Positions 279 through 61,495 of a DNA stretch of 64,000 nt are shown piece by piece. Within the stretch, counting starts at the first letter, position 1; each line of letters opens with the position of its first letter. The position numbers and the translations under genes were made by a program. The stretch lies in the NCBI GenBank assembly GCA_030390025.1, contig JASTWF010000330.1, forward strand, positions 372,001 through 436,000, given 5' to 3'. Under the pieces are notes generated by a model. It was given only the letters and a program-made list of their open reading frames with translations. It did not search any database and was not told the DNA's origin. Origin of the DNA: Squalus acanthias. Lineage: Eukaryota.

Positions 279-423
279 TCGCAGAATCCACACTCACTGA
301 CCCGTGTGAAAATCACACAGTCCTGGACCAGCCCTGGAGGAGCACGGATTGTAATGGGACTCAGTGCTCCCGCCAGAGGAAGTGCGATGGCAAACTTGAC
401 TACAGATGGTACAGATTTAAAAG
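279..423 (+). CDS. Exon D1 of a uromodulin/GP2-like D8C(D10C)-domain protein
   Basis: Acceptor tttctgtcactcAG (277-278) and donor AG|GTACCG (424), phase 1 in and phase 2 out. Translates to xAESTLTDPCENHTVLDQPWRSTDCNGTQCSRQRKCDGKLDYRWYRFK, which carries the DPC..L..WRS, CD and WYRF motifs of the D10C N-terminus. Not in the ORF track. An alternative in-frame acceptor lies at 283-284. Confidence 0.9.
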
Positions 424-583
424 GTACCGTAAAGGGTCAATTTCAGATAAGCTAGTCGATAGGCGAGGAGAAGTGAGAAAAAGTGTGAGATTAGGAACGA
501 GCAATGCAGGGAGACTAGGATCAACAGGGAAGGGAATGGATGAAGGGAAAAGGGGAAACAACCTGAACCAACTGAGCGAAAAG

Positions 584-3500
584 CAGAGAGTAAAGGGAAA
601 TACCCGGGATAGAGGGGAATATAGAACGGGGACAGAGAGTAAAGTGAGATACCCGGGATAGAGGGGAATATAGAACGGGGACAGAGAGTAAAGTGAGATA
701 CCCGGGATAGAGGGGAATATAGAACGGGGACAGAGAGTAAAGTGAGATACCCGGGATAGAGGGGAATATAGAACGGGGACAGAGAGTAAAGTGAGATACC
801 CGGGATAGAGGGGAATATAGAACGGGGACAGAGAGTAAAGTGAGATACCCGGGATAGAGGGGAATATAGAACGGGGACTGAGAGTAAAGTGAGATACCCG
901 GGATAGAGGGGAATATAGAAAGGGGACAGAGAGTAAAGGGAGATACCCGGGATAGAGGGGAATATAGAACGGGGACAGAGAGTAAAGGGAGATACCCGGG
1001 ATAGAGGGGAATATAGAACGGGGACAGAGAGTAAAGTGAGATACCCGGGATAGAGGGGAATATAGAACGGGGACAGAGAGTAAAGTGAGATACCCGGGAT
1101 AGAGGGGAATATAGAACGGGGACAGAGAGTAAAGTGAGATACCCGGGATAGAGGGGAATATAGAACGGGGACAGAGAGTAAAGTGAGATACCCGGGATAG
1201 AGGGGAATATAGAACGGGGACAGAGAGTAAAGGGAGATACCCGGGATAGAGGGGAATATAGAACGGGGACAGAGAGTAAAGGGAGATACCCGGGATAGAG
1301 GGGAATATAGAACGGGGACAGAGAATAAAGGGAGATACCCGGGTTAGAGGGGAATATAGAACGGGGACTGAGAGTAAAGGGAGATACCCGGGATAGAGGG
1401 GAATATAGAAAGGGGACAGAGAGTAAAGGGAGATACCCGGGATAGAGGGGAATATAGAACGGGGACAGAGAGTAAAGTGAGATACCCGGGATAGAGGGGA
1501 ATATAGAACGGGGACAGAGAGTAAAGTGAGATACCCGGGTTAGAGGGGAATATAGAACGGGGACTGAGAGTAAAGGGAGATACCCGGGATAGAGGGGAAT
1601 ATAGAACGGGGACAGAGAGTAATGGGAGATACCCGGGATAGAGGGGAATACAGAACGGGGACAGAGAGTAAAGTGAGATACCCGGGTTAGAGGGGAATAT
1701 AGAACGGGGACAGAGTGTAAAGGGAGATACCCAGGATAGAGGGGAATATAGAACGGGGACAGAGAGTAAAGGGAGATACCCGGGATAGAGGGGAATATAG
1801 AAAGGGGACAGAGAGTAAAGGGAGATACCCGGGATAGAGGGGAATATAGAACGGGGACAGAGAGTAAAGGGAGATACCCGGGATAGAGGGGAATATAGAA
1901 CGGGGACAGAGAGGAAAGGCAGATACCCGGGATAGAGGGGAATATAGAACGGGGACAGAGAGTAAAGGACGACACCCGGGATAAGGGGAATATATAACGG
2001 GAAAAGATATTAAATGGACATAACCGGGATAGAGGGGAATATAGACCGGGGACAGAGAGTAAAGGGAGATACCCGGGATAGAGGGGAATATAGAACGGGG
2101 ACAGAGAGTAAAGGGAGATACCTGGGATAGAAGGGAATAAAGAACGGGGACAGAGAGTAAAGGGAGATACCCGGGATAGAGGGGAATATAGAATGGGGAC
2201 AGAGAGTAAAGTGAGATACCTGGGATAGAAGGGAATAAAGAACGGGGACAGAGAGTAAAGGGAGATACCCGGGATAGAGTGGAATATAGAACGGGGACAG
2301 AGAGTAAAGAGAGCTACCCGGGATAGAGGGGAATATAGAACAGGGACTGAGAGTAAAGGGAGATACCCGGGATAGAGGGATATATAGAACGGGAACAGAG
2401 ATTAAAGAGAGCTACCCGGGATAGAGGGGAATATAGAACAGGGACTGAGAGTAAAGGGAGATACCCGGGATAGGGGGAATATAGAACGGGAACAGAGATT
2501 AAATGCACATAACTGGGATAGTGGGGAATATAGAAAGGGGACAGAGAGTAAAGGGAGATACCCGGGATAGAGGGGAATATAGAACAGGGACAGAGAGTAA
2601 AGAGAGATACCCGGGACAGAGGGGAATATATACGGGGACAGGGAGTAAAGGGAGATACCCGGGATAGAGGGGAATATAGAACAGGGACAGAGAGTAAAGA
2701 GAGATACCCGGGACAGAGGGGAATATATACGGGGACAGGGAGTAAAGGGAGATACCCGGGATAGAGGGGAATATAGAACAGGGACAGAGAGTAAAGAGAG
2801 ATACCCGGGACAGAGGGGAATATATACGGGGACAGGGAGTAAAGGGAGATACCCGGGATAGAGGGGAATATAGAACGGGGACAGAGAGTAAAGGGAGGTA
2901 CCCGGGATAGAGGGGAATATAGAATGGGGACAGACAGTAAAGGGAGATACCCGGGATAGGGGGAATATAGAACGGGAACAGAGATTAAATGCACATAACC
3001 GGGATAGTGGGGAATATAGAAAGGGGACAGAGAGTAAAGGGAGATACCCGGGATAGAGGGAAATATAGAACGGGGACAGAGAGTAAAGGGAGATACCCGG
3101 GATAGTGGGGAATATAGAACGGGAACAGAGATTAAATGGACATAACCGGGATAGAGGGGAATATAGAAAGGGGACAGAGAGTAAAGGGAGATACCCGGGA
3201 TAGAGGGAAATATAGAACGGGGACAGAGAGTAAAGGGAGATACCCGGGATAGAGAGGAATATAGAACGGGGACAGAGAGTAAAGGGAGATACCCGGGATA
3301 GAGAGGAATATAGAACGGGGACAGAGAGTAAAGGGAGACACCCGGGATAGAGGGGAATATAGAACGGGGACAGTGAGTATACGGAGATACCCGGGATAGA
3401 GGGTAATATAGAACGGGGACAGAGAGGAAAGGGAGATACCCGGGATAGAGGGGAATATAGAACGGGGACAGAGAGTAAAGGGAGATACCCGGGATAGAGG

Positions 3501-6500
3501 GGAATATAGAACGGGGACAGAGAGAAAAGGGAGATACCCGGGTTAGAGGGGAATATAGAACGGGGACAGAGAGTAAAGGACGACACCCGGGATAAGGGGA
3601 ATATAGAACGGGAAAAGATATTAAATGGACATAACCGGGATAGAGGGGAATATAGACCGGGGACAGAGAGTAAAGGGAGATACCCGGGGTAGAGGGGAAT
3701 ATAGAACGGGGACAGAGAGTAAAAGGAGACACCTGGGATAGAGGGGAATATTGAACGGGGACAGAGAGTAAAGGGAGATACCTGGGATAGAAGGGAATAA
3801 AGAACGGGGACAGAGAGTAAAGGGAGATACCTGGGAACGAGGGGAATATAGAACGGGGACAGAGAGTAATGGGGGATACCCGGGATAGACGGGAATATAG
3901 AACGGGGACAGAGAGTAAAGGGAGATAACTGGGATAGAGGGGAATATAGAACGGGGACAGAGAGTAAAGGGAGGTACCCGGGATAGAGTGGAATATAGAA
4001 CGGGGACAGACAGTAAAGGGAGATACCCGGGATAGAGGGAAATATAGAACGGGGACAGAGAGTAAAGGGAGATAACTGGGATAGAGGGGAATATAGAACG
4101 GGGGCAGAGAGCAAAGAGAGGTACCCGGGATAGAGGGGAATATAGAACAGGGACAGAGAGTAAAGGGAGATAACTGGGATAGTGGGGAATATAGAAAGGG
4201 GACAGAGAGTAAAGGGAGATACCTGGGATAGAGGGGAATATAGAACGGGGACAGAGAGCAAAGAGAGGTACCCGGGATAGAGGGGAATATAGAACAGGGA
4301 CAGAGAGTAAAGGGAGATACCCAGGATAGAGGGGAATATAGAACGGGGACAGAGAGTAAAGGGAGGTACCCGGGATAGAGGGGAATATAGAACGGGGACA
4401 GAGAGTAAAGGGAGATACCCGGGATAGAGGGGAATATAGAACGGGGACAGAGAGTAAAGGGAGATACCCGGGATAGAGGGGAATATAGAACGGGGACAGA
4501 GATTAAAGGGAGATACCCGGGATCGAGGGGAATATAGAACGGGGACAGAGAGTAAAGGGAGATACCCGGGATAGAGGGGAATATAGAACGGGGCCAGAGA
4601 GTAAAGGGAGATACTGGGGATACAGGAGAATATAGAACGCGGACAGAGAGTAAAGGGAGATACCCGGGATAGCGGGGAATATAGAACGGGGACAGAGAGT
4701 AAAAGGAGATACCCGGGATAGAGGGGAATATAGAACGTGGACAGAGAGTAAAGGGAGATACCCGGGATAGAGGGGAATATAGATCGGGGACAGAGAGTAA
4801 AGGAGATACCCGGGATAGAGGGGAATATAGAACGGGGACAGAGAGTAAAGGGAGATACCCAGGATAGAGGGGAATATAGAACGGGGACAGAGAGTAAAGG
4901 GAGATACCCGGGATAGAGGGGAATATAGAACGGGGACAGAGAGTAAAGGGAGATACCCGGGATAGAGGGGAATATAGAACGGGGACAGAGAGTAAAGGGA
5001 GATACCCGGGATAGAGGGGAATATAGAACGGGGACAGAGATTAAAGGGAGATACCCGGGATAGAGGGGAATATAGAACGGGGACAGAGAGTAAAGGGAGA
5101 TACCCGGGATAGAGGGGAATATAGAACGGGGACAGAGAGTAAAGGGAGATACCTGGGATAGAGGGAATATAGAACGCGGACAGAGAGTAAAGGGAGATAC
5201 CCGGGATAGAGGGGAATATAGAACGGGGACAGAGAGTAAAGGGAGATACCCGGGATAGAGGGGAATATAGAACGTGGACAGAGAGTAAAGGGAGATACCC
5301 GGGATAGAGGGGAATATAGAACGGGGACAGAGAGTAAAGGAAGATACCCGGGATAGAGGGGAATATAGAACGGGGACAGAGAGTAAAGGGAGATACCCGG
5401 GATAGAGGGGAATATAGAAAGGGGACAGAGAGTAAATGGAGATACCTGGGATAGAGGGGATTTTAGAACAGGGACAGAGAGTAAAGGGAGATACCCGGGA
5501 TAGAGGGGAATATAGAACGGGGACAGAGAGTAAATGGAGATACCTGGGATAGAGGGGATTATAGAACGGGGACAGAGATTAAAGGGAGATACCCGGGATA
5601 GAGGGGAATACAGAACGGTGACAGAGAGTAAAGGGAGATACCCGGGATAGAGGGGAATATAGAACGGGGACAGAGAGTAAAGGAAGATACCCGGGATAGA
5701 GGGGAATATAGAACGGGGACAGAGAGTAAAGGGAGATACCCGGGATAGAGGGGAATATAGAAAGGGGACAGAGAGTAAATGGAGATACCTGGGATAGAGG
5801 GGATTTTAGAACAGGGACAGAGAGTAAAGGCAGATACCCGGGATAGAGGGGAATATAGAACGGGGACAGAGAGTAAATGGAGATACCTGGGATAGAGGGG
5901 ATTATAGAACGGGGACAGAGATTAAAGGGAGATACCCGGGATAGAGGGGAATATAGAACGGTGACAGAGAGTAAAGGGAGATACCCGGGATAGAGGGGAA
6001 TACAGAACGGGGACAGAGAGTAAAGGGAGATACCCGGGATAGAGGGGAATATAGAACGGGACAGAGAGTAAAGGGAGATACCCGGGATAGAGGGGAATAT
6101 AGAACAGGGACAGAGAGTAAAGGGAGATACCGGGATAGAGGGGAATATAGAACGGGGACAGAGAGTAAAGGGAGATACCCGGGATAGAGGGGAATATAGA
6201 AAGGGGACAGAGAGTAAATGGAGATACCTGGGATAGAGGGGAATATAGAACAGGGACAGAGAGTAAAGGGAGATACCCGGGATAGAGGGGAATATAGAAC
6301 GGGGACAGAGAGTAAAGGGAGATACCCGGGATAGAGGGGAATATAGAACGGGGACAGAGAGTAAAGGGAGATACCCGGGATAGAGGGGAATATAGAACGG
6401 GGACAGAGAGTAAAGGGAGATACCCGGGATAGAGGGGAATATAGAACGGGGACAGAGAGTAAAGGGAGATACCCGGGATAGAGGGGAATATAGAACGGGG

Positions 6501-7832
6501 ACAGAGAGTAAAGGGAGATACCCGGGATAGAGGGGAATATAGAACGGGGACAGAGAGTAAAGGGAGATACCCGGGATAGAGGGGAATATAGAACGGGGAC
6601 AGAGAGTAAAGGGAGATACCCGGGATAGAGGGGAATATAGAACGGGGACAGAGAGTAAAGGGAGATACCCGGGATAGAGGGGAATATAGAACGGGGACAG
6701 AGAGTAAAGGGAGATACCCGGGATAGAGGGGAATATAGAACGGGGACAGAGAGTAAAGGGAGATACCCGGGATAGAGGGGAATATAGAACGGGGACAGAG
6801 AGTAAAGGGAGATACCCGGGATAGAGGGGAATATAGAACGGGGACAGAGAGTAAAGGGAGATAACCGGGATAGAGGGTAATATAGAACGGGGACAGAGAG
6901 TAAAGGGAGATACCCGGGATAGAGGAGAATATAGAACGGGGACAGAGAGTAAAGGAGATACCCGGGATAGAGGGAAATATAGAACGGGGACAGAGAGTAA
7001 AGGGAGATACCCGTGATAGAGGGGAATATAGAACGGGACAGAGAGTAAAGGGAGATACCCGGGATAGAGGGGAATATAGAACGGGGACAGAGAGTAAAGG
7101 GAGATACCCGGGATAGAGGGGAATACAGAACGGGGACAGAGAGTAAAGGGAGATACCCGGGATAGAGGGGAATACAGAACGGGACAGAGAGTAAAGGGAG
7201 ATACCCGGGATAGAGGGGAATATAGAACGGGGACAGAGAGTAAAGTGAGATACCCGGGATAGAGGGGAATATAGAACGGGAACAGAGATTAAATGGAGAT
7301 AACCGGGATAGAGGGGAATATAGAACGGGGACAGAGAGTAAAGGGAGATACCCGGGATAGAGGGAATATAGAACGGGGACAGAGAGTAAAGGGAGATACC
7401 CGGGATAGAAGGGAATAAAGAACGGGGACAGAGAGTAAAGGGAGATACCTGGGAACGAGGGGAATATAGAACGGGGACAGAGAGTAATGGGGGATACCCT
7501 GGATAGAGTGGAATATAGAACGGGGACAGAGGGGAAAGGGAGATACCCAGGATAGAGGGGAATATAGAACGGGGACAGAGAGTAAAGGGAGATACCCGGG
7601 ATAGAGGGAATATAGAACGGGGACAGAGAGTAAAGGGAGATACCTGGGATAGAGGGGAATATAGAACGGGGCCAGAGAGTAAAGGGAGATACCCGGGATA
7701 GAGGGGAATATAGAACGGGGCCAGAGAGTAAAGGGAGACACCAGGGATAGAGGGGAATATAGAACACGGACAGAGAGTAAAGGGAGATACCCGGGATAGA
7801 GGGGATTATAGAACGGGGACAGAGATTAAAGG
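584..7832. repeat. 49-bp purine-rich tandem satellite (about 148 units) filling the D1-D2 intron
   Basis: Consensus CAGAGAGTAAAGGGAGATACCCGGGATAGAGGGGAATATAGAACGGGGA. Period measured directly (tacccggg at 601 and 650). Most units contain CCCGGG. Confidence 0.98.
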
Positions 7833-7930: not shown

Positions 7931-8007
7931 TTCTGGTGGATGGAAGATGCCGGAGACTGAAGTCCCAAAGTGGCGCTGCTCTACAATGAAACCAGGCTGG
8001 TTAAATG
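7931..8007 (+). CDS. Exon D2 of the D8C/D10C domain
   Basis: Acceptor gttgtttcAG and donor G|GTACTT, 77 bp, phase 2 in (AG+T=Ser, matching D1) and phase 1 out. Translates to SSGGWKMPETEVPKWRCSTMKPGWLN, comparable to UMOD [24 protein letters not shown]. Confidence 0.9.
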
Positions 8008-8100: not shown

Positions 8101-8265
8101 GTTCCCATCCCACCGTGGGACAGGGAGAAGTGACAAGGACAGTTTGTTTTCACTCGGGTGGAAAACCCTGTCGCTGGACCCGGGAGATAAAGGTCAAAAA
8201 CTGCACCAGTTACTTTGTTTATGAGTTGAAGCCGACACCGAATTGGAACTTGGCTTATTGCACAG
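8101..8265 (+). CDS. Exon D3 of the D8C/D10C domain
   Basis: Acceptor ctcatttcAG and donor CAG|GTATGT, 165 bp, phase 1-1. Translates to GSHPTVGQGEVTRTVCFHSGGKPCRWTREIKVKNCTSYFVYELKPTPNWNLAYCT, matching the D8C C-terminal pattern HP...G.V.R..C.H....C.W...V.VK.C..Y.VY.L......AYC. Confidence 0.92.
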
Positions 8266-9243: not shown

Positions 9244-11859
9244 AGGGCAGAAAACGTTAGTGGGGGTTGTGTACAGACCTCCAAACAGTAGTAGTGAGGT
9301 GGGGAGGGTATGAAACAGGAAATCAGAGGTGCATGCAAAAAAGGCACGGCAGTTATCATGGGTGACTTTAATATGCATATAGATTGGGCTACTCAAACTG
9401 GAAGCAATACGGTGGAGGAGGATTTCCTGGAGTGTTTAAGGGATGGTTTCCTAAACCAATATGTTGAGGAACCAACTAGAGGGGGGGCCATCCTGGACTG
9501 GGTGTTGTGTAATGAGGAAGGACTAATCAGCAAACTTGTGGTGCGAGGCCCCTTGGGGAAGAGTGACCATAGTATGGTGGAGTTCTACATTAGGATGGAG
9601 AAGGAAACAGTTAATTCAGAGACCATGGTCCAGAACTTAAATAAGGGCAACTTTGAGGGTATGAGGCGTGAATTGGCGAGGTTAGATTGGCAAGCGATAT
9701 TTAAGGGGTTATCAGTGGAAGGGCAATGGCAGACATTTAGAGATCGCATGGATGAACTACAGCAATTGTACATCCCTGTCTGGCGTAAAAATAAAAAACG
9801 GAAGGTGGCTCAACCATGGCTAACAAGGGAAATCAGGGATAGTATTAAAAGCAAGGAAGTGGCATACAAATTGGCCAGAAGTAGCAGCAAACCCGGGGAC
9901 TGGGAGAACTTTAGAACTCAGCAGAGGAGGACGAAGGGTTTGATTAGGGCAGGGAAAATAAAATATGAAAGGAAGCTTGCGGAGAACATTAAAACGGACT
10001 GCAAAAGCTTCTATAAATATGTAAAAAGAAAGAGGTTAGTAAAAACAAACGTAGGTCCCCTGCAGTCAGAAACAGGGGACGTCATAATGGGGAACAAAGA
10101 AATGGCAGATCAATTGAACAAGTACTTTGGTTCGGTGTTTACTGTGGAGGACACAAACAACCTTCCGGAAATAAAAGAGATCAAAGGATCTGGTAAGAGG
10201 GAGGAGCTGAGGGAAATCCTTATCAGTCGGGAAAAGGTGTTGGGGAAATTGATGGGACTGAAGGCTGATAAAACCCAGGGCCTGATGGTCTGCATCCCAG
10301 AGTACTGAAGGAGGTGGCCTTGGAAATAGTGGATTCATTGACGATCATTTTCCAACATTCCTTAGACTCTGGATCAGTTCCGAAGGAGTGGAGGGTGGCT
10401 AATGTAACCCCTCTTTTTAAAAAAGGAGGGAGGGAGAAAGCAGGGAATTATAGACCAGTCAGCCTGACATCGGTGGTGGGTAAAATGATGGAATCAATTA
10501 TTAAAGATGTCATAACAGACCATTTGGAAAGTGGCGACATGATAGGTCCAAGTCAGCATGGATTTGTGAAAGGGAAATCATGCTTGACAAATCTTCTGGA
10601 AATTTTTGAGGATGTTTCCAATAGGGTGGACGGGGGGGAACCAGTAGATGTGGTGTATTTGGACTTTCAGAAGGCCTTCGACAAGGTCCCACACAAGAGA
10701 TTGGTGTGCAAAGTTAAAGCACATGGGATTTGGGGTAATGTGTTGACGTGGATTGAGAACTGGTTGGCACACAGGAAACAAAGAGTAGGAGTAAATGGGT
10801 ACTTTTCAGAATGGCAGGCAGTGACCAGCGGGGTACCGCAGGGTTCGGTGCTGGGACCCCAGCTGTTTACATTATATATTAATGATTTGGACGAAGGGAT
10901 TAATTGTAATATCTCCAAATTTGCGGATGACACTAAATTGGGAGGCAGTGTGAACAATGAGGAGGATGCTAGGAGGCTACAGAGTGACTTGGACAGGTTG
11001 GGTGAATGGGCAAATGTATGGCAGCTGAAGTACAATGTGGATAAATGTGAGTTTATCCACTTTGGTGGTAAAAATAGGGAGGCAGACTATTACCTGAATG
11101 GTGGCAGATTAGGGAAAGGGGAGGTGCAACGAGACCTGGGCGTCATGGTACATCAGTCACTGAAGGTGGGAAGGCAAGTGCAGCAGGCATTCAAGAAAGC
11201 AAATGGCATGATGGCCTTCATAGCAAGGGGATTTGAGTACAGGAGTAGGGAGGTGATGCTACAGTTGTACAGGGCCTTGGTGAGGCCACACCTGGAGTAT
11301 TGTGTGCAGTTTTGGTCTCCTAACTTGAGGAAGGACATTCTTGCTATTGAGGGAGTGCAACGAAGGTTCACTAGATTGATTCCTGGGATGGCCAGACTGA
11401 CATATCAAGAAAGACTGGATCAACTGAACTTGTATCCTCTGGAGTTCAGAAGAATGAGGGGGGATCTTATAGAGACGTTTAAAATCCTGACTGGTTTAGA
11501 CAAATTAGATGCGGGCAGAATGTTTCCAATGTTAGGGAAAACTAAAACCAGGGGTCACAGTCTAAGGATAAAGGGGAAGCCATTTAAGACTGAGATGAGG
11601 AGGAACTTCTTCACCCAGAGAGTGGTGAATCTGTGGAATTCTCTACCACAGAAGGTTGTTGAGGCCAGTTCGCTAAATATATACAAAAGGGAGTTAGATA
11701 TAATACTCACAACTAGGGGGATCAAGGGGTATGGCGAGAAAGCAGGAATGGGGTACTGAGGTAGCATGTTCAGCCATGAACGCATTGAATGGCGGTGCAG
11801 GCTCGAAGGACCGAATGGTCTACTCCTGCACCTATTTTCTATGTTTCTATGTTTCTATG
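9244..11859 (+). mobile_element. CR1-clade LINE (shark HER1-like), 5'-truncated, about 2.6 kb, ORF2 endonuclease end plus reverse transcriptase, frameshifted
   Basis: Motifs VVYRPP, IMGDFN, LDWVL and SDH (APE endonuclease), then NYRPVSLTS, QHGF.KGKSC, YLDFQKAFDKV, GVPQGSVLGP and KFADDTKL (RT). A 1-bp frameshift near 10273-10278 splits ORFs 9310-10308 and 10314-11759. Ends in (TTTCTATG)3. Confidence 0.95.
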
Positions 11860-12882: not shown

Positions 12883-12955
12883 ATCCAGAGACTTCCCCAA
12901 ATCAGGGCCCCGAGGAACAAATGACTGGAGAATCCGCTGAGGGTTCATCCACTAT
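12883..12955 (+). pseudogene. 5' part of a mucin-like repeat exon, cut off by a LINE fragment
   Basis: Same acceptor as the array (cctttattacAG). Encodes DPETSPNQGPEEQMTGESAEGSSTI and then runs into LINE RT sequence. The upstream flank (tataaagtctggtgtctgacattctc) is of type B. Confidence 0.8.
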
Positions 12956-13731: not shown

Positions 13732-13793
13732 ACAACCAACTGAATAATCTGCTGACCGTTCATCCACTATCCCAGCAGTTTCTGCAGCCTCTG
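13732..13793 (+). pseudogene. 3' remnant of a type-B repeat exon
   Basis: Sequence caaccaactgaaTAAtctgctgaccgt...gcctctg|GTATCT has no acceptor and an in-frame TAA where intact B copies have GAA. The downstream flank gggcccattgtttacag...cccggagattcatcc is of type B. Confidence 0.85.
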
Positions 13794-48700: not shown

Positions 48701-51700
48701 GTGTCCCTCTCCCCTCAGGAACTGCGGTCCACTCCCCTCAGGAACTGTGTCCCACTCCCCTCAGGAACTGTGTCCCACTCCCCTCAGGAACTGTGTCCAC
48801 TCCCCTCAGGAACTGTGTCCCACTCCCCTCAGGAACTGTATCCCTCTCCCGTCAGGAACTGTGTCCCTCTCCCCTCCGGAACTGTGTCCACTCCCCTCAG
48901 GAACTGTGTCCCACTCCCCTCAGGAACTGTGTCCCACTCCCCTCAGGAACTGTGTCCCTCTCCCCTCAGGAACTGTGTCCCACTCCCCTCAGGAACTGTG
49001 TCCCACTCCCCTCAGGAACTGTGCCCCTCTCCCCTCCGGAACTGTGTCCACTCCCCTCAGGAACTGTGTCCCACTCCCCTCAGGAACTGTGTCCCACACC
49101 CCTCAGGAACTGTGTCCCACTCCCCTCCGGAACTGTGTCCACTCCCCTCAGGAACTGTGTCCCACTCCCCTCAGGAACTGTGTCCCACTCCCCACAGAAA
49201 CTGTAACCCTCTCCCCTCAGGAACTGTGTCCACTCCCCTCAAGAACTGTGTCCACTCCCCTCAGGAACTGTGTCCCACTCCCCTCAGGAACTGTGTCCAC
49301 TCCCCTCAGGAACTGTGTCCCACTCCCCTCAGGAACTGTGTCCACTCCCCTCAGGAACTGTGTCCACTCCCCTCAGGAACTGTGTCCACTCACCTCAGGA
49401 ACTGTGTCCACGCCCCTCAGGAACTGTGTCCACTCCCCTCAGGAACCGTGTCCACTCCCCTCAGGAACTGTGTCCCTCTTCCCTCAGGAACTGTGTCCAC
49501 TCCCCTCAGGAAATGTGTCCCTCTCCCCTCAGGAACTGTGTCCCTCTCCCCTCAGGAACTGTGTCCCTCTCCCCTCAGGAACTGTGTCCCACTCCCCTCA
49601 GGAACTGTGTCCACTCACCTCAGGAACAGTATCCCTCTCCCCACAGGAACTGTGTCCCACTCCCCTCAGGAACTGTGTCCCACTCCCCTCAGGAACTGTG
49701 TCCCACTCCCCACAGGAACTGTGTCCCAAACCCCTCAGGAGCTGTGTCCACACCCTCAGGAACTGTGTCCCTCTCCCCTCAGGAACTGCGGTCCACTCCC
49801 CTCAGGAACTGTGTCCCACTCCCCTCAGGGACTGTGTCCCACTCCCCTCAGGAACTGTGTCCCACTCCCCTCAGGAACTGTGTCCCACTCCCCTCAGGAA
49901 CTGTGTCCCACTCCCCTCAGGAACTGCATCCCACTCCCCTCAGTAACTGTGTTCCACTCACCTCAGTAACTGTGTACCACTCCCCTCAGGAACTGTGTCC
50001 CACTCCCCTCAGGAGCTGTGTCCCTCTCCCCTCAGGAAATGTGTCCCACTCCTCTCAGGAACTGTGTCCCACTCCCCTCAGGAACTGTGTCCCACTCCCC
50101 TCAGGAACTGTGTCCCACTCCCCTCAGGAACTGTGTTCCACTCACCTCAGTAACTGTGTCCCACTCCCCTCAGGAACTGTGTCCCACTCGCCTCAGGAGC
50201 TGTGTCCCACTCCCCTCAGGAACTGTGTCCCACTCCCCTCAGGAACTGTGTCCCACTCCCCTCAGGAACTGTGTCCCACTCCCCTCAGGAAATCTGTCCC
50301 ACTCCACTCAGGAACTGTGTCCCACTCCCCTCAGGAACTGTGTCCCACTCCCCTCAGGAACTGTGTCCCACTCCCCTCAGGAACTGTGTCCCACTCCCCT
50401 CAGGAACTGTGTCCCACTCCCCTCAGGAACTGTGTCGCACTTCACTCAGAAACTGTGTGCAACTCCCCTCAGGAACTGTGTCCCTCTCCCCTCAGGAACA
50501 GCGTCCCACTCCCCTCAGGAACTGTGTCCCACTCCCCTCAGAAACTGTGTCACACTCCCCTCAGGAACTGTGTCCCACTCCCCTCAGGAACTGTGTCCCA
50601 CTCCCCTCAGGAACTGTGTCCCACTCCCCTCAGGAACTGTGTCCCACTCCCCTCAGTAACTGTGTCCCACTCCCCTCAGAAACTGTGTCCACTCCCCTCA
50701 GGAACTGTGTCCCACTCCCCTCAGGAACTGTGTCCCACTCCCCTCAGGAACTGTGTCCCACTCCCCTCAGGAAATGTGTCCCACTCCCCTCAGGAACTGT
50801 GTGCCACTCCCCTCAGGAACTGTGTCCCACTCCCCTCAGGAACTGTGTCCCACTCCCCTCAGGAACTGTGTCCCACTCCCCTCAGGAACTGTGTCCCACT
50901 CCCCACAGGAACTGTGTCCCACTCCCCTCAGGAACTGTGTCCCACTCCCCTCAGAAACTGTGTCCCCCTCCCCTCAGGAACTGTGTCCCCCTCCCCTCAG
51001 GAACTGTGTCCCACTCCCCTCAGGAACTGTGTCCAACTCCCCTCAGGAACTGTATCCCCCTCCCCTCAGGAACTGTGTCCCACTCCCCTCAGGAACTGTG
51101 TCCCACTCCCCTCAGGAACTGTGTCCCACTCCTCTCTGGAACTGTGTCCCACTCCCCTCAGGAACTGCGTTCTACTCCCCTCAGGAACTGTGTCCCACTC
51201 CCCTCAGGAACTGTGTCCCACTCCCCACAGAAACTGTAACCCTCTCCCCTCAGGAACTGTGTCCACTCCCCTCAGAACTGTGTCCACTCCCCTCAGGAAC
51301 TGTGTCCCACTCCCCTCAGGAACTGTGTCCCACTCCCCTCAGGAACTGTGTCCACTCCCCTCAGGAACTGTGTCCACTCCCCTCAGGAACTGTGTCCACT
51401 CCCCTCAGGAACTGTGTCCCACTCACCTCAGGAACTGTGTCCACGCCCCTCAGGAACTGTGTCCACTCCCCTCAGGAACCGTGTCCACTCCCCTCAGGAA
51501 CTGTGTCCCTCTTCCCTCAGGAACTGTGTCCACTCCCCTCAGGAACTGTGTCCCTCTCCCCTCAGGAACTGTGTCCCTCTCCCCTCAGGAACTGTGTCCC
51601 TCTCCCCTCAGGAACTGTGTCCCACTCCCCTCAGGAACTGTGTCCACTCCCCTCAGGAACAGTATCCCTCTCCCCACAGGAACTGTGTCCCACTCCCCTC

Positions 51701-54700
51701 AGGAACTGTGTCCCACTCCCCTCAGGAACTGTGTCCCACTCCCCACAGGAACTGTGTCCCACACCCCTCAGGAGCTGTGTCCACACCCTCAGGAACTGTG
51801 TCCCTCTCCCCTCAGGAACTGCGGTCCACTCCCCTCAGGAACTGTGTCCCACTCCCCTCAGGGACTGTGTCCCACTCCCCTCAGGAACTGTGTCCCACTC
51901 CCCTCAGGAACTGTGTCCCACTCCCCTCAGGAACTGTGTCCACTCCCCTCAGGAACTGTGTCCCACTCCCCTCAGGAACTGTGTCCCACTCCCCTCAGGA
52001 ACTGTGTCCCACTCCCCTCAGGAACTGTGTCCACTCCCCTCAGGAACTGTGTCCCACTCCCCTCAGGAACTGTGTCCCACTCCCCTCAGGAACTGTGTCC
52101 CACTCCCCTCAGGAACTGTGTCCCACTCCCCTCAGGAACTGTGTCCCACTCCCCTCAGGAACTGTGTCCCACTCCCCTCAGGAACTGTGTCCCACTCCCC
52201 TCAGGAACTGTGTCCCACTCCCCTCAGGAACTGTGTCCCACTCCCCTCAGGAACTGTGTCCCACTCCCCTCAGGAACTGTGTCCACTCCCCTCAGGAACT
52301 GTGTCCCACTCCCCTCAGGAACTGTGTCCCACTCCCCTCAGGAACTGTGTCCCACTCCCCTCAGGAACTGTGTCCCACTCCCCTCAGGAACTGTGTCCCA
52401 CTCCCTCAGGAACTGTGTCCCACTCCCCTCAGGAACTGTGTCCCACTCGCCTCAGGAGCTGTGTCCCACTCCCCTCAGGAACTGTGTCCCACTCCCCTCA
52501 GGAACTGTGTCCCACTCCCCTCAGGAACTGTGTCCCACTCCCCTCAGGAACTGTGTCCCACTCCCCTCAGGAACTGTGTCCCACTCCCCTCAGGAACTGT
52601 GTCGCACTCCACTCAGAAACAGTGTGCAACTCCCCTCAGGAACTGTGTCCCACTCCCCTCAGAAACTGTGTCACACTCCCCTCAGGAACTGTGTCCCACT
52701 CCCCTCAGGAACTGTGTCCAACTCCCCTCAGGAACTGTGTCCCACTCCCCTCAGAAACTGTGTCACACTCCCCTCAGGAATTGTGTCCCACTCCCCTCAG
52801 GAACTGTGTCCCACTCCCCTCAGGAACTGTGTCCCACTCCCCTCAGGAACTGTGTCCCACTCCCCTCAGGAAATGTGTCCCACTCCCCTCAGGAACTGTG
52901 TCCCACTCCCCTCAGGAACTGTGTCCCACTCCCCTCAGGAACTGTATCCCCCTCCCCTCAGGAACTGTGTCCCACTCCCCTTAGGAACTGTGTCCCACTC
53001 CCCTCAGGAACTGTGTCCCATTCCTCTCTGGAACTGTGTCCCACTCCCCTCAGGAACTGCGTTCTACTCCCCACAGAAACTGTGTCCCACTCCCCTCAGG
53101 AACTGTGTCCCACTCCCCACAGAAACTGTAACCCTCTCCCCTCAGGAACTGTGTCCACTCCCCTCAAGAACTGTGTCCACTCCCCTCAGGAACTGTGTCC
53201 CACTCCCCTCAGGAACTGTGTCCACTCCCCTCAGGAACTGTGTCCACTCCCCTCAGGAACTGTGTCCACTCCCCTCAGGAACTGTGTCCGCTCCCCTCAG
53301 GAACTGTGTCCACTCCCCTCAGGAACTGTGTCCACTCACCTCAGGAACTGTGTCCCTCTCCCCTCAGGAACTGTGTCCCTCTCCCCTCAGGAACTGTGTC
53401 CCTCTCCCCTCAGGAACTGTGTCCCACTCCCCTCAGGAACTGTGTCCACTCCCCTCAGGAACAGTATCCCTCTCCCCACAGGAACTGTGTCCCACTCCCC
53501 TCAGGAACTGTGTCCCACTCCCCTCAGGAACTGTGTCCCACTCCCCACAGGAACTGTGTCCCACACCCCTCAGGAGCTGTGTCCACACCCTCAGGAACTG
53601 TGTCCCTCTCCCCTCAGGAACTGCGGTCCACTCCCCTCAGGAACTGTGTCCCACTCCCCTCAGGGACTGTGTCCCACTCCCCTCAGGAACTGTGTCCCAC
53701 TCCCCTCAGGAACTGTGTCCCACTCCCCTCAGGAACAGCATCCCACTCCCCTCAGTAACTGTGTACCACTCCCCTCAGGAACTGTGTCCGACTCCCCTCA
53801 GGAGCTGTGTCCCACTCCCCTCAGGAACTGTGTCCCACTCCCCTCAGGAACTGTGTCCCACTCCCCTCAGGAACTGTGTCCCACTCCCCTCAGGAACTGT
53901 GTCCCACTCCCCTCAGGAACTGTGTTCCACTCACCTCAGTAACTGTGTACCACTCCCCTCAGGAACTGTGTCCCACTCGCCTCAGGAGCTGTGTCCCACT
54001 CCCCTCAGGAACTGTGTCCCACTCCCCTCAGGAACTGTGTTCCACTCACCTCAGTAACTGTGTCCCACTCCCCTCAGGAACTGTGTTCCACTCGCCTCAG
54101 TAACTGTGTACCACTCCCCTCAGGAACTGTGTCCCACTCGCCTCAGGAGCTGTGTCCCACTCCCCTCAGGAACTGTGTCCCACTCCCCTCAGGAACTGTG
54201 TCCCACTCCCCTCAGGAACTGTGTCCCACTCCCCTCAGGAACTGTGTCCCACTCCCCACAGGAACTATGTTCCACTCACCTCAGTAACTGTGTCCCACTC
54301 CCCTCAGGAACTGTGTCCCACTCGCCTCAGGAACTGTGTCCCACTCCCCTCAGGAACTGTGTCCCACTCCCCTCAGGAACTGTGTCCCACTCCCCTCAGG
54401 AACTGTGTCCCACTCCCCTCAGGAACTGTGTCCCACTCCCCTCAGGAACTCTGTCCCACTCCCCTCAGGAACTGTGTCCCCCTCCCCTCAGGAACTGTGT
54501 CCCACTCCCCTCAGGAACTGTGTCCCACTCCCCTCAGGAACTGTGTCCCACTCCCCTCAGGAACTGTGTCCCACTCCGCTCAGGAACTGTGTCCCACTCC
54601 CCTCAGGAACTGTGTCCCACTCCCCTCAGGAACTGTGTCCCACTCCCCTCAGGAACTGTGTCCCACTCCCCTCAGGAACTGTGTCCCACTCCCCTCAGGA

Positions 54701-55150
54701 ACTGTGTCCCACTCCCCTCAGAACTGTGTCCCACTCCCCTCAGGAACTGTGTCCCACTCCCCTCAGGAACTGTGTCCCACTCCCCTCAGGAACTGTGTCC
54801 CACTCCCCTCAGGAACTGTGTCCCACTCCCCTCAGGAACTGTGTCCCACTCCCCTCAGGAACTGTGTCCCACTCCCCTCAGGAACTGTGTCCCACTCACC
54901 TCAGAAACTGTGTCCCCCTCCCCTCAGGAACTGTGTCCCCCTCCCCTCAGGAACTGTGTCCCACTCCCCTCAGGAACTGTGTCCCACTCCCCTCAGGAAC
55001 TGTGTCCCACTCCTCTCTGGAACTGTGTCCCACTCCCCTCAGGAACTGTGTCCCACTCCCCTCAGGAACTGTGTCCCACTCCCCTCAGGAACTGCGTTCT
55101 ACTCCCCACAGAAACTGTGTCTCACTCCCCTGAGGATCTGTGTCCCACTC
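39705..55150. repeat. About 15.4-kb expansion of 23-bp unit 2 (with 22-bp variants) in the B5-B4 intron
   Basis: Continuous AGGAACTGTGTCC(C)ACTCCCCTC array, interrupted only by a SINE at about 47.1-47.5 kb. Confidence 0.97.
47103..47498 (+). mobile_element. tRNA-derived V-domain SINE (shark HE1-like), 5'-truncated, with a CR1-type tail
   Basis: B-box GGTTCGAATC near 47118. V-domain gtgtggagtttgcacattctccccgtgtctgcgtgggtttcctccgggtgctccggtttcctcccaca. 3' end cagccatgatcgtattgaatggcggagcaggctcga...(TTTCTATG)n. TGTGTC flanks both sides (47097-47102 and 47497-47502). Confidence 0.88.
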
Positions 55151-55520
55151 CCCTCAGTCTCCTCACACACTCACCACAGTCTCCTCATCCCACTCCCCTC
55201 AGCCTCCTCATTCCACTCCGCTCAGTCTCCTGACCCCATCACCTCAGTCTCCTCATCCCACTCCTATCTGTCTCCTCATCCCACTCCCCTCAGTCACCTC
55301 ATTCCACTCCCTACAGTTCCCACATCCCACTCCCCTCAGTCTCCTCATCCCACTCCCCTCAGTCTCCACATCCCACTCCCCTCAGTCCCCTCATCCCACG
55401 ACCACAAGTCTCCTCCTCCCACTCTCTCAGTAAAAGATTGGATGAATCTCCGGGAATTAGGTTTTCAGGAGTCACATTGTGTGAACAGACTGTAAACAAT
55501 GGGCCCCACAAGACAGATAC

Positions 55521-55616
55521 CTGAGGCTGCAGACACTGCTGGGGTAGTGGCTGAACGGTCAGCAGATTCTTGATTTGGTTGTTCCTCGGTTTCCTGATTT
55601 GGGGACGTGGACGGAC
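55521..55616 (-). CDS. Mucin-like repeat exon B5
   Basis: AG/GT, 96 bp. GPSTSPNQETEEQPNQESADRSATTPAVSAAS. Confidence 0.8.
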
Positions 55617-56692
55617 CTGTAATAAAGGAAAAGAGAGATTGGAGAGTGGAGGAGTGAAGAACACCAGAACAGGTCACCAGACTGGGACTAGAGCTGGAGA
55701 ATGTCAGACACCAGTCTTTATATAACCCAGAATCACCCAATCCCATCCCCACAGGAACTGTGTCCCACTCCCCTCAGGAACTGTGTCCAACTCCCCTCAG
55801 GAACTGTGTTCCACTCCCCTCAGGAACTGCGTCCCATTCCCCTCAGGAACTGTGTTCCACTCCCCTCAGGAACTGCGTCCCACTCCCCTCAGGAACTGTG
55901 TCCAACTCTCCTCAGGAACTGTGTTCCACTCCCCTCAGGAACTGTGTCCCACTCCCCTCAGGAACTGTGTTCCACTCCCCTCAGGAACTGCGTCCCACTC
56001 CCCTCAGGAACTGAGTCCCACTCCCCTCAGGAACTGCGTCCCACTCCCCTCAGGAACTGTGTCCCACTCCCCTCAGGAACTGTGTCCCACTCCCCTCAGG
56101 AACCGTGTTCCACTCCCCTCAGGAACTGTATTCCACTCCCCTCAGGAATTGTGTCCCACTCCCCTCAGGAACTGAGTCCCACTCCCATCAGTCTCCTCAT
56201 CCCATTCCGTTCAGTTCCCTAATCCCACTCCTCTGAGTCTCCACATCTCACTCCTCTCAGTCCCCTCATCCCACTCCCCTCAGGCTCCTCATCACACTAC
56301 CCTCAGTTCCTCATCCAAATCCCCTCAGACTCGTCAAACCACTCCGCTCAGTCCCCTCATCCCACTACCCTCAGTCTCCTCATGCAACTCCCCTCAGTTC
56401 CCTCATCCCACTCCCCTCAGTCTCCTCATCCTACTCCGCTCAGTCTCCTCATACCACTCCCTTCGGTCTCCTCATCCCACTACCCTCAGGCTCCTCATCC
56501 CACTACCCACAGTCTCCTCATCCAAATCCCCTCAGGCTCGTCATCCCACACCCCTCAGTCCCCTCATCCCACTCGCCTCAGTCACGATACCCACTCCCTG
56601 AGTAAGAGATTGGATGAATCTCCGGGAATGATGTTTTCAGGAGTCACATTGAGTGAACAGACTGTAAACAATGGGCCCCACAAGACAGATAC

Positions 56693-56788
56693 CTGAGGCT
56701 GCAGACACTGCTGGGGTAGTGGATGAACCGTCAGCAGATTCTTGAGTTGTTTGTTCCTCCGTTTCCTGAATTGGGTAGGTGGCCGGTC
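56693..56788 (-). CDS. Mucin-like repeat exon B6
   Basis: AG/GT, 96 bp. GPATYPIQETEEQTTQESADGSSTTPAVSAAS. Confidence 0.8.
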
Positions 56789-58346
56789 CTGTAATAAAGG
56801 AAGAGAGAGATTGGAGAGTGGAGGAGTGATGAACACCAGAACAGGTCACCAGACTGAGACGAGAGCTGGAGAATGTCAGACACCAGTCTTGAAAAAACCC
56901 AGAATCATCCAATCCCACTCCCCTCAGGCACTGTGTCCCACTCCCCTCAGGAACTGTGTCGCAATCCCCTCAGGAACTGTGTCCCACACCCTCAGGAACT
57001 GTGTCCCACTCCCCTCTGGAACTGTGACCCACTCCCCTCAGGAACTGTCTCCCACTCCCCTCAGGAACTGTGTCCCACTCCCCTCAGGAACTGTTCCCAC
57101 TCCCCTCAGGAACTGTGTCCCACTCCCCTCAGGAACTGTGTCCCACTCCCCTCAGGAACTGTGTCCAACTCCCCTCAGGAACTATGTCCCACTCCCCTCA
57201 GGAACAGCGTCCCACTCCCCTCAGGAACTGTGTCCCACTCCCCTCAGGAACTGTGTCCCACTCCCCTCAGGAACCTCGTCCCACTCCCCTCAGGAACTGT
57301 GTCCCACTCCCCTCAGGAACCTCGTCCCACTCCCATCAGGAACTGTGACCCACTCCCCTCAGAAACTGCGTCCCACTCCCCTCAGGAACTGTGTCCCACT
57401 CCCCTCAGGAACTGTGTCCCACTCCCCTCAGGAACTGTGTCCCACTCCCCTCATAACTGTGTCCCTCTCCCCTCAGGAACTGTGTCCCACTCATCTCAGG
57501 AACTGTGTCCCACTCCCCTCAGGAACTGTGACCAACTCCATTCTGAAACTGTGGCCCTCTCCCCTCAGGAACTGTGTCCCACTCCCCTCAGGAACTGTGT
57601 CCCACTCCCCTCAGGAACTGTGTCCCACTCCTCTCAGGAACTGTGTCCCACTCCCCTCAGGAACTGTGACCCACTCCCCTCAGGAACTGTGTCCCACTCC
57701 CCTCAGGAACTGGGTCCCACTCCCCTCAGAAACTCTGTCCCACTCCCCTCAGCAAATGCATCCCACTCCCCTCAGGAACTGTGTCCAACTCCCCTCAGGA
57801 ACCTCGATCCACTCGCCTCAGGAACTGTGTCCCACTCCCCTCAGAAACTGCGTCCCACTCCCCTCAGGAACCTCGTTCCACTCACCTCAGGAACTGTGAC
57901 CCACTTCCCTCAGGAACTGTGACCCACTCCCATCAGGAACTGTGTCCCACTCCCCTTAGGAACTGTGTCCCACTCCCATCAGGAACTGTGTCCCACTCCC
58001 ATCAGGAACTGTGTCCCACTCCCCTCAGGAACTGTGTCCCACTCCCCTCAGGAACAGTGTCCCACTCCCCTCAGATTCCTCATTCCACTCCCCTCAGTCC
58101 CCTCATCCACTCCCCTCAGTCTCCTCATCCCACTCCCCTCAGCCTCCTCATCCCACTCCCCTCAGTCTCCTCATCCCACTCCCCTCAGTCTCCACATCCC
58201 ACTCCCCTCAGTCTCCTCATCCCACGACCACAAGTCTCCTCATCCCACTCCCTCAGTAAGAGATTGGATGAATCTCCGGGAATGAGGTTTTCAGGAGTCA
58301 CATTGTGTGAACAGACTGTAAACAATGGGCCCCACAAGACAGATAC

Positions 58347-58442
58347 CTGAGGCTGCAGACACTGCTGGGATAGTGGCTGAACGGTCAGCAGATTCTTGAT
58401 TTGGTTGTTCCTCGGTTTCCTGATTTGGGGACCTGGCCGGAC
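58347..58442 (-). CDS. Mucin-like repeat exon B7
   Basis: AG/GT, 96 bp. GPARSPNQETEEQPNQESADRSATIPAVSAAS. Confidence 0.8.
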
Positions 58443-61399
58443 CTGTAATAAAGGAAGAGAGAGATTGGAGAGTGGAGGAGTGAAGAACACCAGAACAGGT
58501 CACCAGACTGAGACTAGACCTGGAGAATGTCAGACACCAGTCTTTATATAACCCAGAATCATACAATCCCACTCCCCTCAGGAACAGTGTCCCACTCCCC
58601 TCAGGAACTGTGTCCAACTCCCCTCAGGAACTGTGTCCCACTCCCCTCAGGAACTGTGTCCCACTCCCCTCAGGAACTGTGTCCCACTCCCCTCAGGAAC
58701 TGAGTCCCACTCCCCTCAGGAACTGTGTTCCTTTCCCCTCAGGAACTGTGTCCCACTCCCCTCAGGAACTGTGTCCCACTCCCGTCAGTAACTGTGTCCC
58801 ACTCCCCTCAGGAACTGTGTCCCACTCCCGTCAGTAACTGTGTCCCACTCCCCTCGGGAACTGTGTCCCACTCCCCTCAGTAACTGTGTCCCACTCCTCT
58901 CAGGAATTGGGTCCCACTTCCCTCAGGAACTGTGTTCCTTTCCCCTCAGAAACTGTGTCCCACTCCCCTCAGGAACTGTGTCCCACTCCCGTCAGGAACT
59001 GTGTCCCACTCCCCTCAGGAACTGTGTCCCACTCCCCTCAGGAACTGTGTCCCATCCCCTCAGAAACTGTGTCCCACTCTCCTCAGGAACTGTGTCCCAC
59101 TCCCCTCAGGAACTGTGTCCATCTCCCCTCAGGAACTGTGTCCCACTCCCCTCAGGAACTGTGTCCCACTCCCGTCAGTAACTGTGTCCCACTCCCCTCA
59201 GGAACTGTGTCCCACTCCCCTCAGGATCTGCGACTTACTCCCCTCAGGAACTGCGTCCCACTCCCCTCAGGAACTGTGTCCCACTCCCCTCAGAATCTCT
59301 GTCCCACTCCCCTCAGGAACTGTGTCCCACTCCCCTCAGGATCTGCGACTTACTCCCCTCAGGAACTGCGTCCCACTCCCCTAGGAACTGCGTCCCACTC
59401 CCCTCAGGATCTGCGTCCCACTCCCCTCAGAAACTGCGTCACACTCCCCTCAGGAACTGTGTCCCACTCCCCTCAGGAACCGTGTCCCTCTCCCCTCAGT
59501 CTCCACGTACCACTTCCCTCTTTCTCCTCATCCCATCCCCTCAGTCTCCACATCCCACTCAACTCAGACACCTCATCCAACTCTACTCAGAGTCCTCATC
59601 CCACTCCCCTCAGACCCCTCATGCCACTCTCCTCAGTCTCCTCATCCCTCTCCCCTCAGTCTCCTCATCCCACTCCCCTCAGTCTCCTCATTCCACTACC
59701 CTCAGTCTCCTCATCCCTCTCCCCTCAGTCTCCTCATCCCACTCCCCTCAGTCTCCTCATCCCACTCCCCTCAGTCTCCTCATCCCACTCCCCTCAGTCC
59801 CCTCATCCCCATCCGATCAGTCTCCTCATCCCACTCCCCTCAGTCTCCTCATCCCACTCCACTCTGTCTCCTCATCCCCTTCACTCAGTCTCCTCATCCC
59901 ACTCCCCTCAGTCTCCTCTTCCCACTCCCCTCAGTCTCCTCATCCCACTCCCCTCAGTCTCCTCATCCCACTCCCCTCAGTCTCCTCATCCCCATCCGCT
60001 CAGTCTCCTCATCCCATTCCCCTCTGTCTCCTCATTCCCATCCGCTCAGTCTCCTCATCCCACTCCCCTCAGTCTCCTCATCCCACTCCCCTCAGTCTCC
60101 TCATCCCACTCCCCTCAGTCTCCTCATCGCCATCCGCTCAGTCTCCTCATCCCACTCCCCTCAGTCTCCTCATCCCCATCCGCTCAGGCTCCTCATCCCC
60201 ATCCGCTCAGTCTCCTCATCCCGCTCCCCTCAGTCTCCTCATTCCACTACCCCTCAGTCTCATCATCCCACTCCCCTCAGTCTCATCATCCCACTCCCCT
60301 CAGTCTCCTCCTCCCACTCCCCTCAGTCTCCTCATCCCACTCCCCTCAGTCTCCTCATCCCACTCCCCTCGGTCTCCTCATTCCACTCCCCTCAGTCTCC
60401 TCATCCCGCTTCCCTGAGTCTCCTCACCCTAAACCTCTCCATCTCCTCATCCCACTCAACTCAGACTACTCATCCCACTCCACTCAGACCCCTGACCTCA
60501 CTCCACTCAGACTCCTCATCCCACTCCCCTCAGTCTCCTCATCCCGCTCCCCACAGTGCCCTCATCCCGCACCCTTCAGTCTCCACATCCATCCGCTCAG
60601 TGTAGGCATCCCACTCCCCTCAGTCTCCTCATCCCACTCCCCTCAGTCTACAATTCCACTCCACTCAGTCTCATCATCCCACTCTCCTCCGTCTCCTCAT
60701 TCCACACCCTTCAGTCTCCTCACCCCACTCCCATCAGTCTCCTCTTCCCACTGCCCTCAGTCTCCTCATCCCACTCCCCTCAGTCTCCTCATCCCACTCA
60801 CCTCTGTCTCCTCAACGCACTCCCCTCAGTCTCCTCATCCCACTCCCCTAAGTCTCCTCATCCCACTCACCTCTGTCTCCTCATCCCACTCCCCTCAGTC
60901 TCCTCATCCAACTCCCCTCAGTCTCCTCATCCCACTCCCGTCAGTCTCATCATCCCACTCCCCTCAGTCTCCTCATCCCACTCACCTCTGTCTCCTCATC
61001 CCACTTCCCTCAGTCTCCTCATCCAACTCCCCTCAGTCTCCTCATTCCACACCCCTCAGTTTCCACGTCCCACTCCCCTCAGTCACGTCATCCCACTCCC
61101 CTCAGTCTCCTCATCCCACTCCGCTCAGTCTCCTCTTCCAACTCCCCTCAGGCCCCTCATCCCACTCCCCTAACACTCCTCATCCTCTCCCCTCAGTTTC
61201 CTCATCCCACTCCCCTCAGTCTCCTCATCCTACTCGCCTCATTCACCTCATCCCACTCCCCTCAGTCCCCTCATCCCACTCCCCTCCTTCACGATACCCA
61301 CTCCCTCAGTAAGAGATTGGATAAATCTCCGGGAATGAGGTTTACAGGAGTCACATTGAGTGAAGAGCCTGTAAACAATGCGCCCCACAAGACAGATAC

Positions 61400-61495
61400 C
61401 TGAGGCTGCAATCCCTGCTGGGATAGTGGATGAACCGTCCGCAGATTCTTGAGTTGGTTGTTCCTCCGTTTCCTGATTTGGGTAGGTGGCCAGTC
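61400..61495 (-). CDS. Mucin-like repeat exon B8
   Basis: AG/GT, 96 bp. GLATYPNQETEEQPTQESADGSSTIPAGIAAS. Confidence 0.8.

Follow-up and report, generated by a model that had tools for sequence, protein, structure and literature searches.

The stretch of 64,000 nucleotides from Squalus acanthias described here (the window; contig JASTWF010000330.1, G000:C2562:372001-436000, in a genome of 3.7 Gb) contains one member of a gene family, represented by its head and the beginning of its stalk. With high confidence the locus can be regarded as a gene of an elasmobranch family encoding secreted proteins with a D10C head, a stalk of exon-encoded repeats and a short tail. The locus was taken to be a real gene because its first three exons (D1 to D3) connect in frame and because a signal-peptide exon is present on the same contig, beginning 28 kb upstream at C2562:344363 and ending in phase 1, which fits D1. 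Coordinates preceded by a contig name refer to the scaffold, those of the listed features to the window.

The D10C head and its stalk of 96-bp exons

The head is encoded by three exons:

279..423, plus strand: exon D1, 145 bp, entering in phase 1 and leaving in phase 2; encodes the last residues of the signal peptide and the initial third of the D10C domain, including an N-H-T sequon that corresponds to N65 of GP2
7931..8007, plus strand: exon D2, 77 bp, with AG/GT ends and an open frame
8101..8265, plus strand: exon D3, 165 bp, ending in phase 1; matches PF23283 and has a Trp where most relatives have Cys9

The preliminary description, which was made from the sequence alone, had proposed that these exons splice in frame to a D10C domain. 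The proposal holds and the coordinates are right: the ends are AG/GT and a single open frame runs on into the stalk unit at 16645. As was anticipated, D3 alone matches the Pfam family D8C_UMOD (PF23283; 29.1 bits against a cut-off of 27), and a comparison of D3 with the PDB recovered GP2 and uromodulin chains with E-values of 7e-9 to 4e-8. The position of the N65-type sequon was established via an alignment of a homolog with GP2; the position of N275 of UMOD is not a sequon in the window copy. The ten-cysteine pattern of GP2 (C1-C8, C2-C9, C3-C6, C4-C10, C5-C7) is incomplete, as the window copy has nine cysteines: according to the translation and the mapping on the alignment, C9 is replaced by Trp, C3 and C6 are absent, and an additional Cys pair is found within an insertion in D1. 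Among 34 homologous domains, Cys2 and Cys9 are both retained in 25 and both lost in 6.

The stalk units form an A and a B block:

16645..16740, plus strand: stalk unit A1, 96 bp
17371..17466, plus strand: stalk unit A2
18649..18744, plus strand: stalk unit A3
20886..20981, plus strand: stalk unit A4
22643..22738, plus strand: stalk unit A5
23599..23694, plus strand: stalk unit A6
25356..25451, plus strand: stalk unit A7
26723..26818, plus strand: stalk unit A8
27818..27913, plus strand: stalk unit A9
29601..29696, plus strand: stalk unit A10
30694..30789, plus strand: stalk unit A11
33304..33399, plus strand: stalk unit A12
34674..34761, plus strand: stalk unit A13, cut by a gap after 88 bp
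35322..35417, minus strand: B-type unit, 96 bp
36978..37073, minus strand: B-type unit
38680..38775, minus strand: B-type unit
39486..39581, minus strand: B-type unit
55521..55616, minus strand: B-type unit
56693..56788, minus strand: B-type unit
58347..58442, minus strand: B-type unit
61400..61495, minus strand: B-type unit
12883..13793, plus strand: unit A0, B-type, broken; split by a fragment of around 780 bp of the reverse transcriptase of a long interspersed nuclear element (LINE; about 12953-13731)

All 20 complete units in the window are 96 bp in length, bounded by AG and GT, of phase 1-1 and free of stops, as had been reported. The plus strand carries 12 complete A units and the 21st unit (34674-34761), which is cut by a gap (34762-35261), and beyond this gap 8 B units (35322-61495) follow on the minus strand, which match A1 at only 68-73 of the 96 bases. 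A1 to A12, all complete, and the truncated A13 lie on one contig, in keeping with the proposed stalk of at least 13 units. The A units are composed of 21% Ser, 18.5% Thr, 12.4% Pro and 13.7% Glu, a Pro/Thr/Ser-rich repeat as in mucin domains. In this way, composition and phase bear out the proposed acidic Ser/Thr/Pro stalk of symmetric 32-residue exons below a D10C head, and the composition is suggestive of dense O-glycosylation. The preliminary description had overlooked unit A0, and likewise the signal-peptide exon, the C-terminal module of the family and the rapid evolution of the head. The acceptor of A0 is intact, and a donor-like site within the LINE at 13027 delimits a stop-free in-frame exon of 144 bp (12883-13026), half of which is LINE sequence; A0 may use this donor.

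The splicing of head and stalk was followed in contigs of four sequencing runs (X1-X4), guessed to be RNA, which were mapped onto 7840-8400. These RNA-like contigs cover D2 and D3, with zero cover in four intron bins (8011-8086), and one of them joins 8006 to 8100 at GT..AG. Loose contig ends showed D1-like letters ahead of D2 (X2) and unit-like letters after D3 (X1, X2, X3 and X4); in X3, 19 of the 30 letters that follow D3 agree in register with the beginning of A1 by a manual count. One X1 contig matched D3 over 140 bases with a single difference. The junctions predicted earlier are recovered in part: splicing of D2 to D3 and of D3 to a unit is seen in RNA-like contigs of relatives. The contigs support head-to-unit splicing of the family and not of this array.

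The remainder of the window is mostly minisatellite, and the main features are:

584..7832, strand not assigned: 49-bp minisatellite, 148 copies, filling the D1-D2 intron
9298..11756, plus strand: LINE with endonuclease and reverse transcriptase frames, in the intron 3' of D3
13902..34571, plus strand: 23-bp polypurine minisatellite, making up the introns that separate the A units
34762..35261, strand not assigned: scaffold gap of 500 N, at which the strand of units and satellite flips
35543..64000, minus strand: 23-bp minisatellite of the B-block introns, around 15 kb of it between B units four and five

Further insertions in the introns (47103-47496, about 8400-9200 and about 11850-12400) are presumably SINE-like (short interspersed element) and LINE-tail-like. 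Genes with such satellite-filled introns break assemblies and come out truncated in annotation.

The gap is of direct relevance for the number of units. A single gene of around 21 units, as suggested in the preliminary description, is not readable from the assembly, as the B units lie on the other strand across the gap; for the same reason the assembly cannot show them to be a direct continuation of the A block. Downstream, the scaffold contains three further contigs with units, namely B on the minus strand (12 complete units), A on the plus strand (14) and A on the minus strand (18). The strand flips at three of the three gaps between 407 and 485 kb and nowhere else, and the satellite flips with it, which leaves both scaffold misorientation and a sister gene or allele as explanations. 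Contigs 3 and 4 are unlikely to be plain duplicates of contig 1, as they have no unit in common with it and the closest pair differs at 8 of 226 bases. Between C2562:299 kb and the end of the scaffold no second head (D2-D3) was found, and the idea that the B block has a head of its own was dismissed because none was found in the downstream part. Elsewhere in the genome the best D2-D3 match reaches 88% identity (best 40 of 151 candidates scored), and outside the B block only A0 is closely related to the B type. Considering these three observations, the unit arrays probably belong to the window head, its allele or a very young sister, with the contigs misoriented. The unit total would then be at least 13 and up to about 57. 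Every unit array in C2562:299-537 kb stops at a gap in its reading direction.

Several half units were observed as well (C2562:437864, 443719 and 449393; 467364 and 474325), in which the acceptor half is replaced by satellite or the exon is deleted, and which were copied two or three times together with higher-order repeats. At C2562:480.6-484.6 kb a long LINE-like insertion, recognized by eye, lies directly behind the last unit of contig 3.

An elasmobranch gene family

The family layout comprises a signal peptide, 1-5 D10C domains, a stalk whose units number from 1 to at least 36, and a tail of around 55 amino acids ending in a stop. The D10C domain is encoded by a three-exon cassette, of which five was the maximum seen, and the window copy has the signal exon, the cassette and the 96-bp phase 1-1 units that are typical of the family. 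In a protein search with D3, 20 of 21 candidates passed, and all 20 were shark or ray proteins with the layout of the window gene or pieces of it. The models stem from Mustelus, Cetorhinus, Carcharodon, Heptranchias, Pristiophorus, Heterodontus, Amblyraja and Pristis. The idea of a lone hidden gene therefore had to be given up: the gene is one of dozens in its genome and was already modelled automatically in other sharks. The RefSeq/UniRef models (XP_041038052-59, XP_067834704, XP_072329629, XP_032880858) have the same layout, with 1-3 D10C domains, 32-residue units and the same tail, and their D3 is 57-78% identical. They differ in length, the retrieved models having no more than about 5-6 units and 740 amino acids, whereas at least 13 units lie on a single contig in the window copy. 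They are labelled 'uromodulin-like', 'GP2-like', 'OIT3-like' or 'uncharacterized', and the family exists in the databases only as unnamed automatic models to which no function is attached. A search of the open-access literature, as far as its text was accessible, yielded no paper describing the family. The accessible part of a shark skin-mucus proteome has no uromodulin/GP2 entry (PMC10707392), which says little as it depends on the reference database.

To give an impression of the family size, the genome search for D2-D3 gave 151 candidates and that for the stalk unit 565 (best 40 scored in both cases), PF23283 gave 85 matches among the best 150 of 327, and the tail gave 79 matches among 86, with 48 counted for the first tail exon; part of these matches are likely haplotype duplicates. 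The number of D10C cassette candidates in this one genome is well over a hundred.

The unit number differs widely between paralogs, by gain and loss of units, in line with the proposal that the length of the stalk is variable. In nine gap-free paralogs the stretch from the last D3 to the tail contains 1, 1, 1, 1, 2, 2, 2, 8 and 9 units, and two long arrays have 34 and at least 36. Skipping of units without a frameshift, which was likewise predicted, is found in RefSeq isoform models that omit whole units (4, 3 and 2 units for LOC121274779 of the white shark; 5 or 4 for a gene of Pristiophorus), the counts being those of automatic models.

The tail consists of two exons followed by a stop and lacks a membrane anchor, and the same holds for the RefSeq relatives. 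Inspection of homologs and of the paralog at C2562:88.8 kb showed tails that terminate in short acidic stretches, without a signal for a glycosylphosphatidylinositol (GPI) or other anchor. A Pfam search with seven tails gave no family common to two of the seven, and the features of the ESM Atlas gave no usable match. A tail profile run against 1.84 billion proteins recovered ten matches, nine from elasmobranchs and one unrelated repeat protein. In structure models of the tail, extended segments lie on both sides of a central helix, and the core has a pLDDT of about 80-90. The fold matches are weak: the best were SEA halves of MUC1 and GPR110, with Z-scores of 3.3 (root-mean-square deviation 3.2-3.3, 47-49 residues aligned) and 2.8-2.9, scores that are tied with those of unrelated entries. 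A dimer prediction for the tail scored 0.01 and gave no answer.

Some paralogs deserve a separate description. The neighbouring gene at C2562:208843-281300 (minus strand) has a signal exon, two D10C cassettes and 36 unit matches in one contig; 28 of these 36 units are an 81-bp variant with an in-frame deletion, one unit has an AT donor, and the D3 of the first cassette measures 164 bp, reflecting a frameshift or an assembly error. The paralog at C2562:55329-88920 has a tandem array of five D10C cassettes, followed by two full units and the two tail exons, near-identical cassettes being present on C3832; a signal exon for it was not found in 30-55 kb. Examples of decay are the 34-unit array at C702:83709-128700 (minus strand), which shows a single stop, a unit of 95 bp and two GC donors, and the 8-unit gene at C702:513260-581927, with a stop, an AT acceptor, an AT donor and a head that lacks two cysteines.

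Selection, decay and possible function

The heads of the family are under diversifying selection. Twenty D2-D3 copies were found, from which 4 duplicates and 3 broken copies were removed to leave 13 intact ones. Within this set the nonsynonymous (pN) and synonymous (pS) differences were 0.148 and 0.141, respectively, and the 93-bp intron differed by 0.097. A site model with positive selection (M2a) was preferred over one without (M1a) with a likelihood ratio of 51.8 (P 6e-12), though it was run with our own code and fixed relative branch lengths, and gene conversion can inflate such a result. It placed 57% of the sites in a class with omega 0.14 and 23% in a class with omega 4.8, and 12 codons had a posterior above 0.8. 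The strongest signals come from sites that flank C4 or C9 and from sites within the loop between C5 and C7. The GP2 disulfides C2-C9, C3-C6, C4-C10 and C5-C7 hold these segments together, and the disulfide-rich end of the D10C domain is located opposite the glycan groove (accessible text of PMC8930769). Given this linkage, the selected sites would form one variable patch away from the glycan.

Constraint on the units is less apparent. The preliminary description contrasted intact exons with flanks that accumulate indels, yet we counted 0 indels in the exons against only 2 events in around twice as much unique flank (a 21-bp deletion common to two A units and a 1-bp deletion in one, the B units having none), a difference not beyond chance. 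Neither were substitutions rarer in the exons than in the flanks, the number of distinct variants per column being 0.66 for both the A exon and its upstream flank, and 0.31 for the B exon against 0.15-0.17 for its flanks. A better sign of constraint is the avoidance of stops: not one was present in the 91 distinct variants of A and B type that the scaffold contains, against an expectation of about 4.0 (P about 0.02), and none among 113 when the units of the neighbouring gene were added (4.7 expected, P 0.008), both P values being rough as the variants share ancestry and are not fully independent.

An alternative that we consider unlikely is that the family is real but the window copy is decaying or mostly silent, its array being a recent satellite-driven amplification of exon plus flanks with few or no units in the protein. 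Several observations weigh against a working defence gene, and most of them fit such decay. Besides the exon divergence that is not below that of the flanks, the N/S ratios of the units are about 1.2, i.e. amino-acid constraint is absent; many units are identical or nearly so; and A0 and several half units are broken. In the window head Cys2 is kept without its partner Cys9, a state seen in 2 of the 34 homologous domains, and the N65-type sequon is kept in only 20 of these 34. The tail exon of the window copy was not found in C2562:299-537 kb, and the RNA-like contigs come from runs of uncertain kind and mostly represent paralogs or relatives. Elsewhere in the family D2-D3 is broken in 3 of 16 distinct paralogous copies, and other long arrays contain stops or frameshifts, with lesions in 3 of 8 and 2 of 34 units in two of them. 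On the other hand, all 56 complete units across the four contigs at 388-506 kb are intact (AG/GT, 96 bp, no stop), compared to 5 lesions in 42 units when these two arrays are pooled (Fisher P 0.013; P 0.14 against the 34-unit array alone, the units not being independent). The amplification, 28 times, of a variant with an in-frame deletion in the neighbouring gene and the intact head and signal exons of the window copy also speak against decay.

With respect to function, the analogy to GP2/UMOD and the zebrafish omcins makes us slightly favour the reading of a secreted defence protein that acts at a mucosal or glandular surface. The product would be a secreted, unanchored protein with a variable D10C head on a glycosylated acidic spacer. 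The O-glycosylated and extended stalk may act as a spacer of adjustable length, its units multiplying via unequal crossing-over in the satellite introns and being skippable without a frameshift, so that exon copy number and skipping would set the length. The head would meet microbial surfaces or adhesins through the variable patch at the disulfide-rich end, and a GP2-type N-glycan might contribute in the copies that retain the sequon. A role in the reproductive tract (a seminal, oviducal, uterine or egg-jelly protein), with the head diversified by gamete recognition or sexual conflict, is rather improbable. Positive selection and birth-and-death evolution are also typical of reproductive proteins and would fit, and the D10C relatives belong to the world of zona pellucida (ZP) proteins, of which the genome has large domain clusters; however, the characterized D10C proteins GP2, UMOD and the omcins are, in the accessible literature, defence proteins of gut, pancreas or kidney. 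Least probable we consider a structural component of a gel or matrix (mucus, jelly or lubricant), in which the stalk does the work and the head only cross-links. Although the stalk has around 40% Ser plus Thr, 14% Glu and 12% Pro and very long arrays exist, 4 of the 9 complete paralogs have a single unit, and a cross-linker would not need a fast-evolving head.

A more far-reaching interpretation can be put forward as a tentative possibility. Sharks and rays might possess a germline repertoire of dozens of secreted recognition proteins, in which the hypervariable patch of each head serves a different foreign ligand, the number of heads (1-5) provides avidity, crossing-over and exon skipping set the reach of the stalk from about 30 to perhaps 1,800 residues, and the tail replaces ZP as the assembly device. 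D10C would then be more than a stand for a glycan, namely a scaffold for variable binding. It is known mainly as a conserved glycan stand on ZP filaments, and is here freed from ZP and multiplied. If the family members are defence proteins, the mucosal immunity of elasmobranchs would have a branch that has been overlooked, and the proteins would provide a natural variable scaffold that is small and rich in disulfides.

Relation to known D10C proteins and repeat mucins

The decoy module of human GP2 and uromodulin (PDB 7P6R, 7PFP), which binds FimH through its D10C glycans (accessible text of PMC8930769), is by sequence of the same fold family, and the GP2 N65-type sequon is present in the window copy. 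Unlike GP2 and UMOD, the shark family lacks EGF, ZP and a GPI signal, and a separate beta-hairpin ahead of the D10C domain was not seen; unlike GP2, the window copy has no C3-C6 pair and has another Cys pair in its insertion, and the N275 site of UMOD is absent. All four homologs scanned gave PF23283 only, and the complete paralogs end in the two tail exons. Identity with UMOD, GP2 or an omcin, or with an adhesion G-protein-coupled receptor, was rejected on account of the short soluble tail in which the complete paralogs and homologs terminate. No ZP match lies on C2562 among the best 150 of 318 ZP candidates in the genome.

The same 150 candidates include very large tandem clusters of ZP exons on C1109, C1945, C1879, C2997, C3223, C3278 and C3813 and at C9:56.6-56.9 Mb. 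At C23:7260921-7271933 a single-exon D8C match and, 10.5 kb further on, a ZP match share one strand; the pair is probably an ordinary gene of the UMOD/GP2/OIT3 type.

A parallel in family structure is provided by the zebrafish omcins. According to the accessible text of PMC11415648, omc1-15 form a clustered, lineage-expanded family in which the number of D10C domains varies. They are expressed in gut and kidney, and loss of omc5 makes the fish less resistant to bacteria; Omc5 carries EGF and ZP modules plus a predicted GPI anchor, and the omcins are called teleost-specific. The shark family is thus similar in being a clustered lineage expansion with variable D10C number, and different in lacking EGF, ZP and GPI; that text describes no exon-per-repeat stalk for the omcins.

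With regard to the stalk, the locus illustrates how a mucin stalk can grow exon by exon through satellite-filled introns. Frog mucins and MUC19 are said to use a design with one exon per repeat, and our search of the accessible literature recovered no paper on vertebrate mucins of this kind. In the SmPoMuc mucins of Schistosoma mansoni, a 27-bp repeat exon plus flanks occurs in up to about 20 tandem copies with a polypurine satellite in between (accessible text of PMC2576457). The likeness concerns gene design only, i.e. that of a recombining multigene family, as the sequences are unrelated, the organism is a parasite and a D10C domain is lacking. With SmPoMuc as a precedent, exon-per-repeat stalks are not new in kind, and the shark family joins such a stalk to a D10C head.

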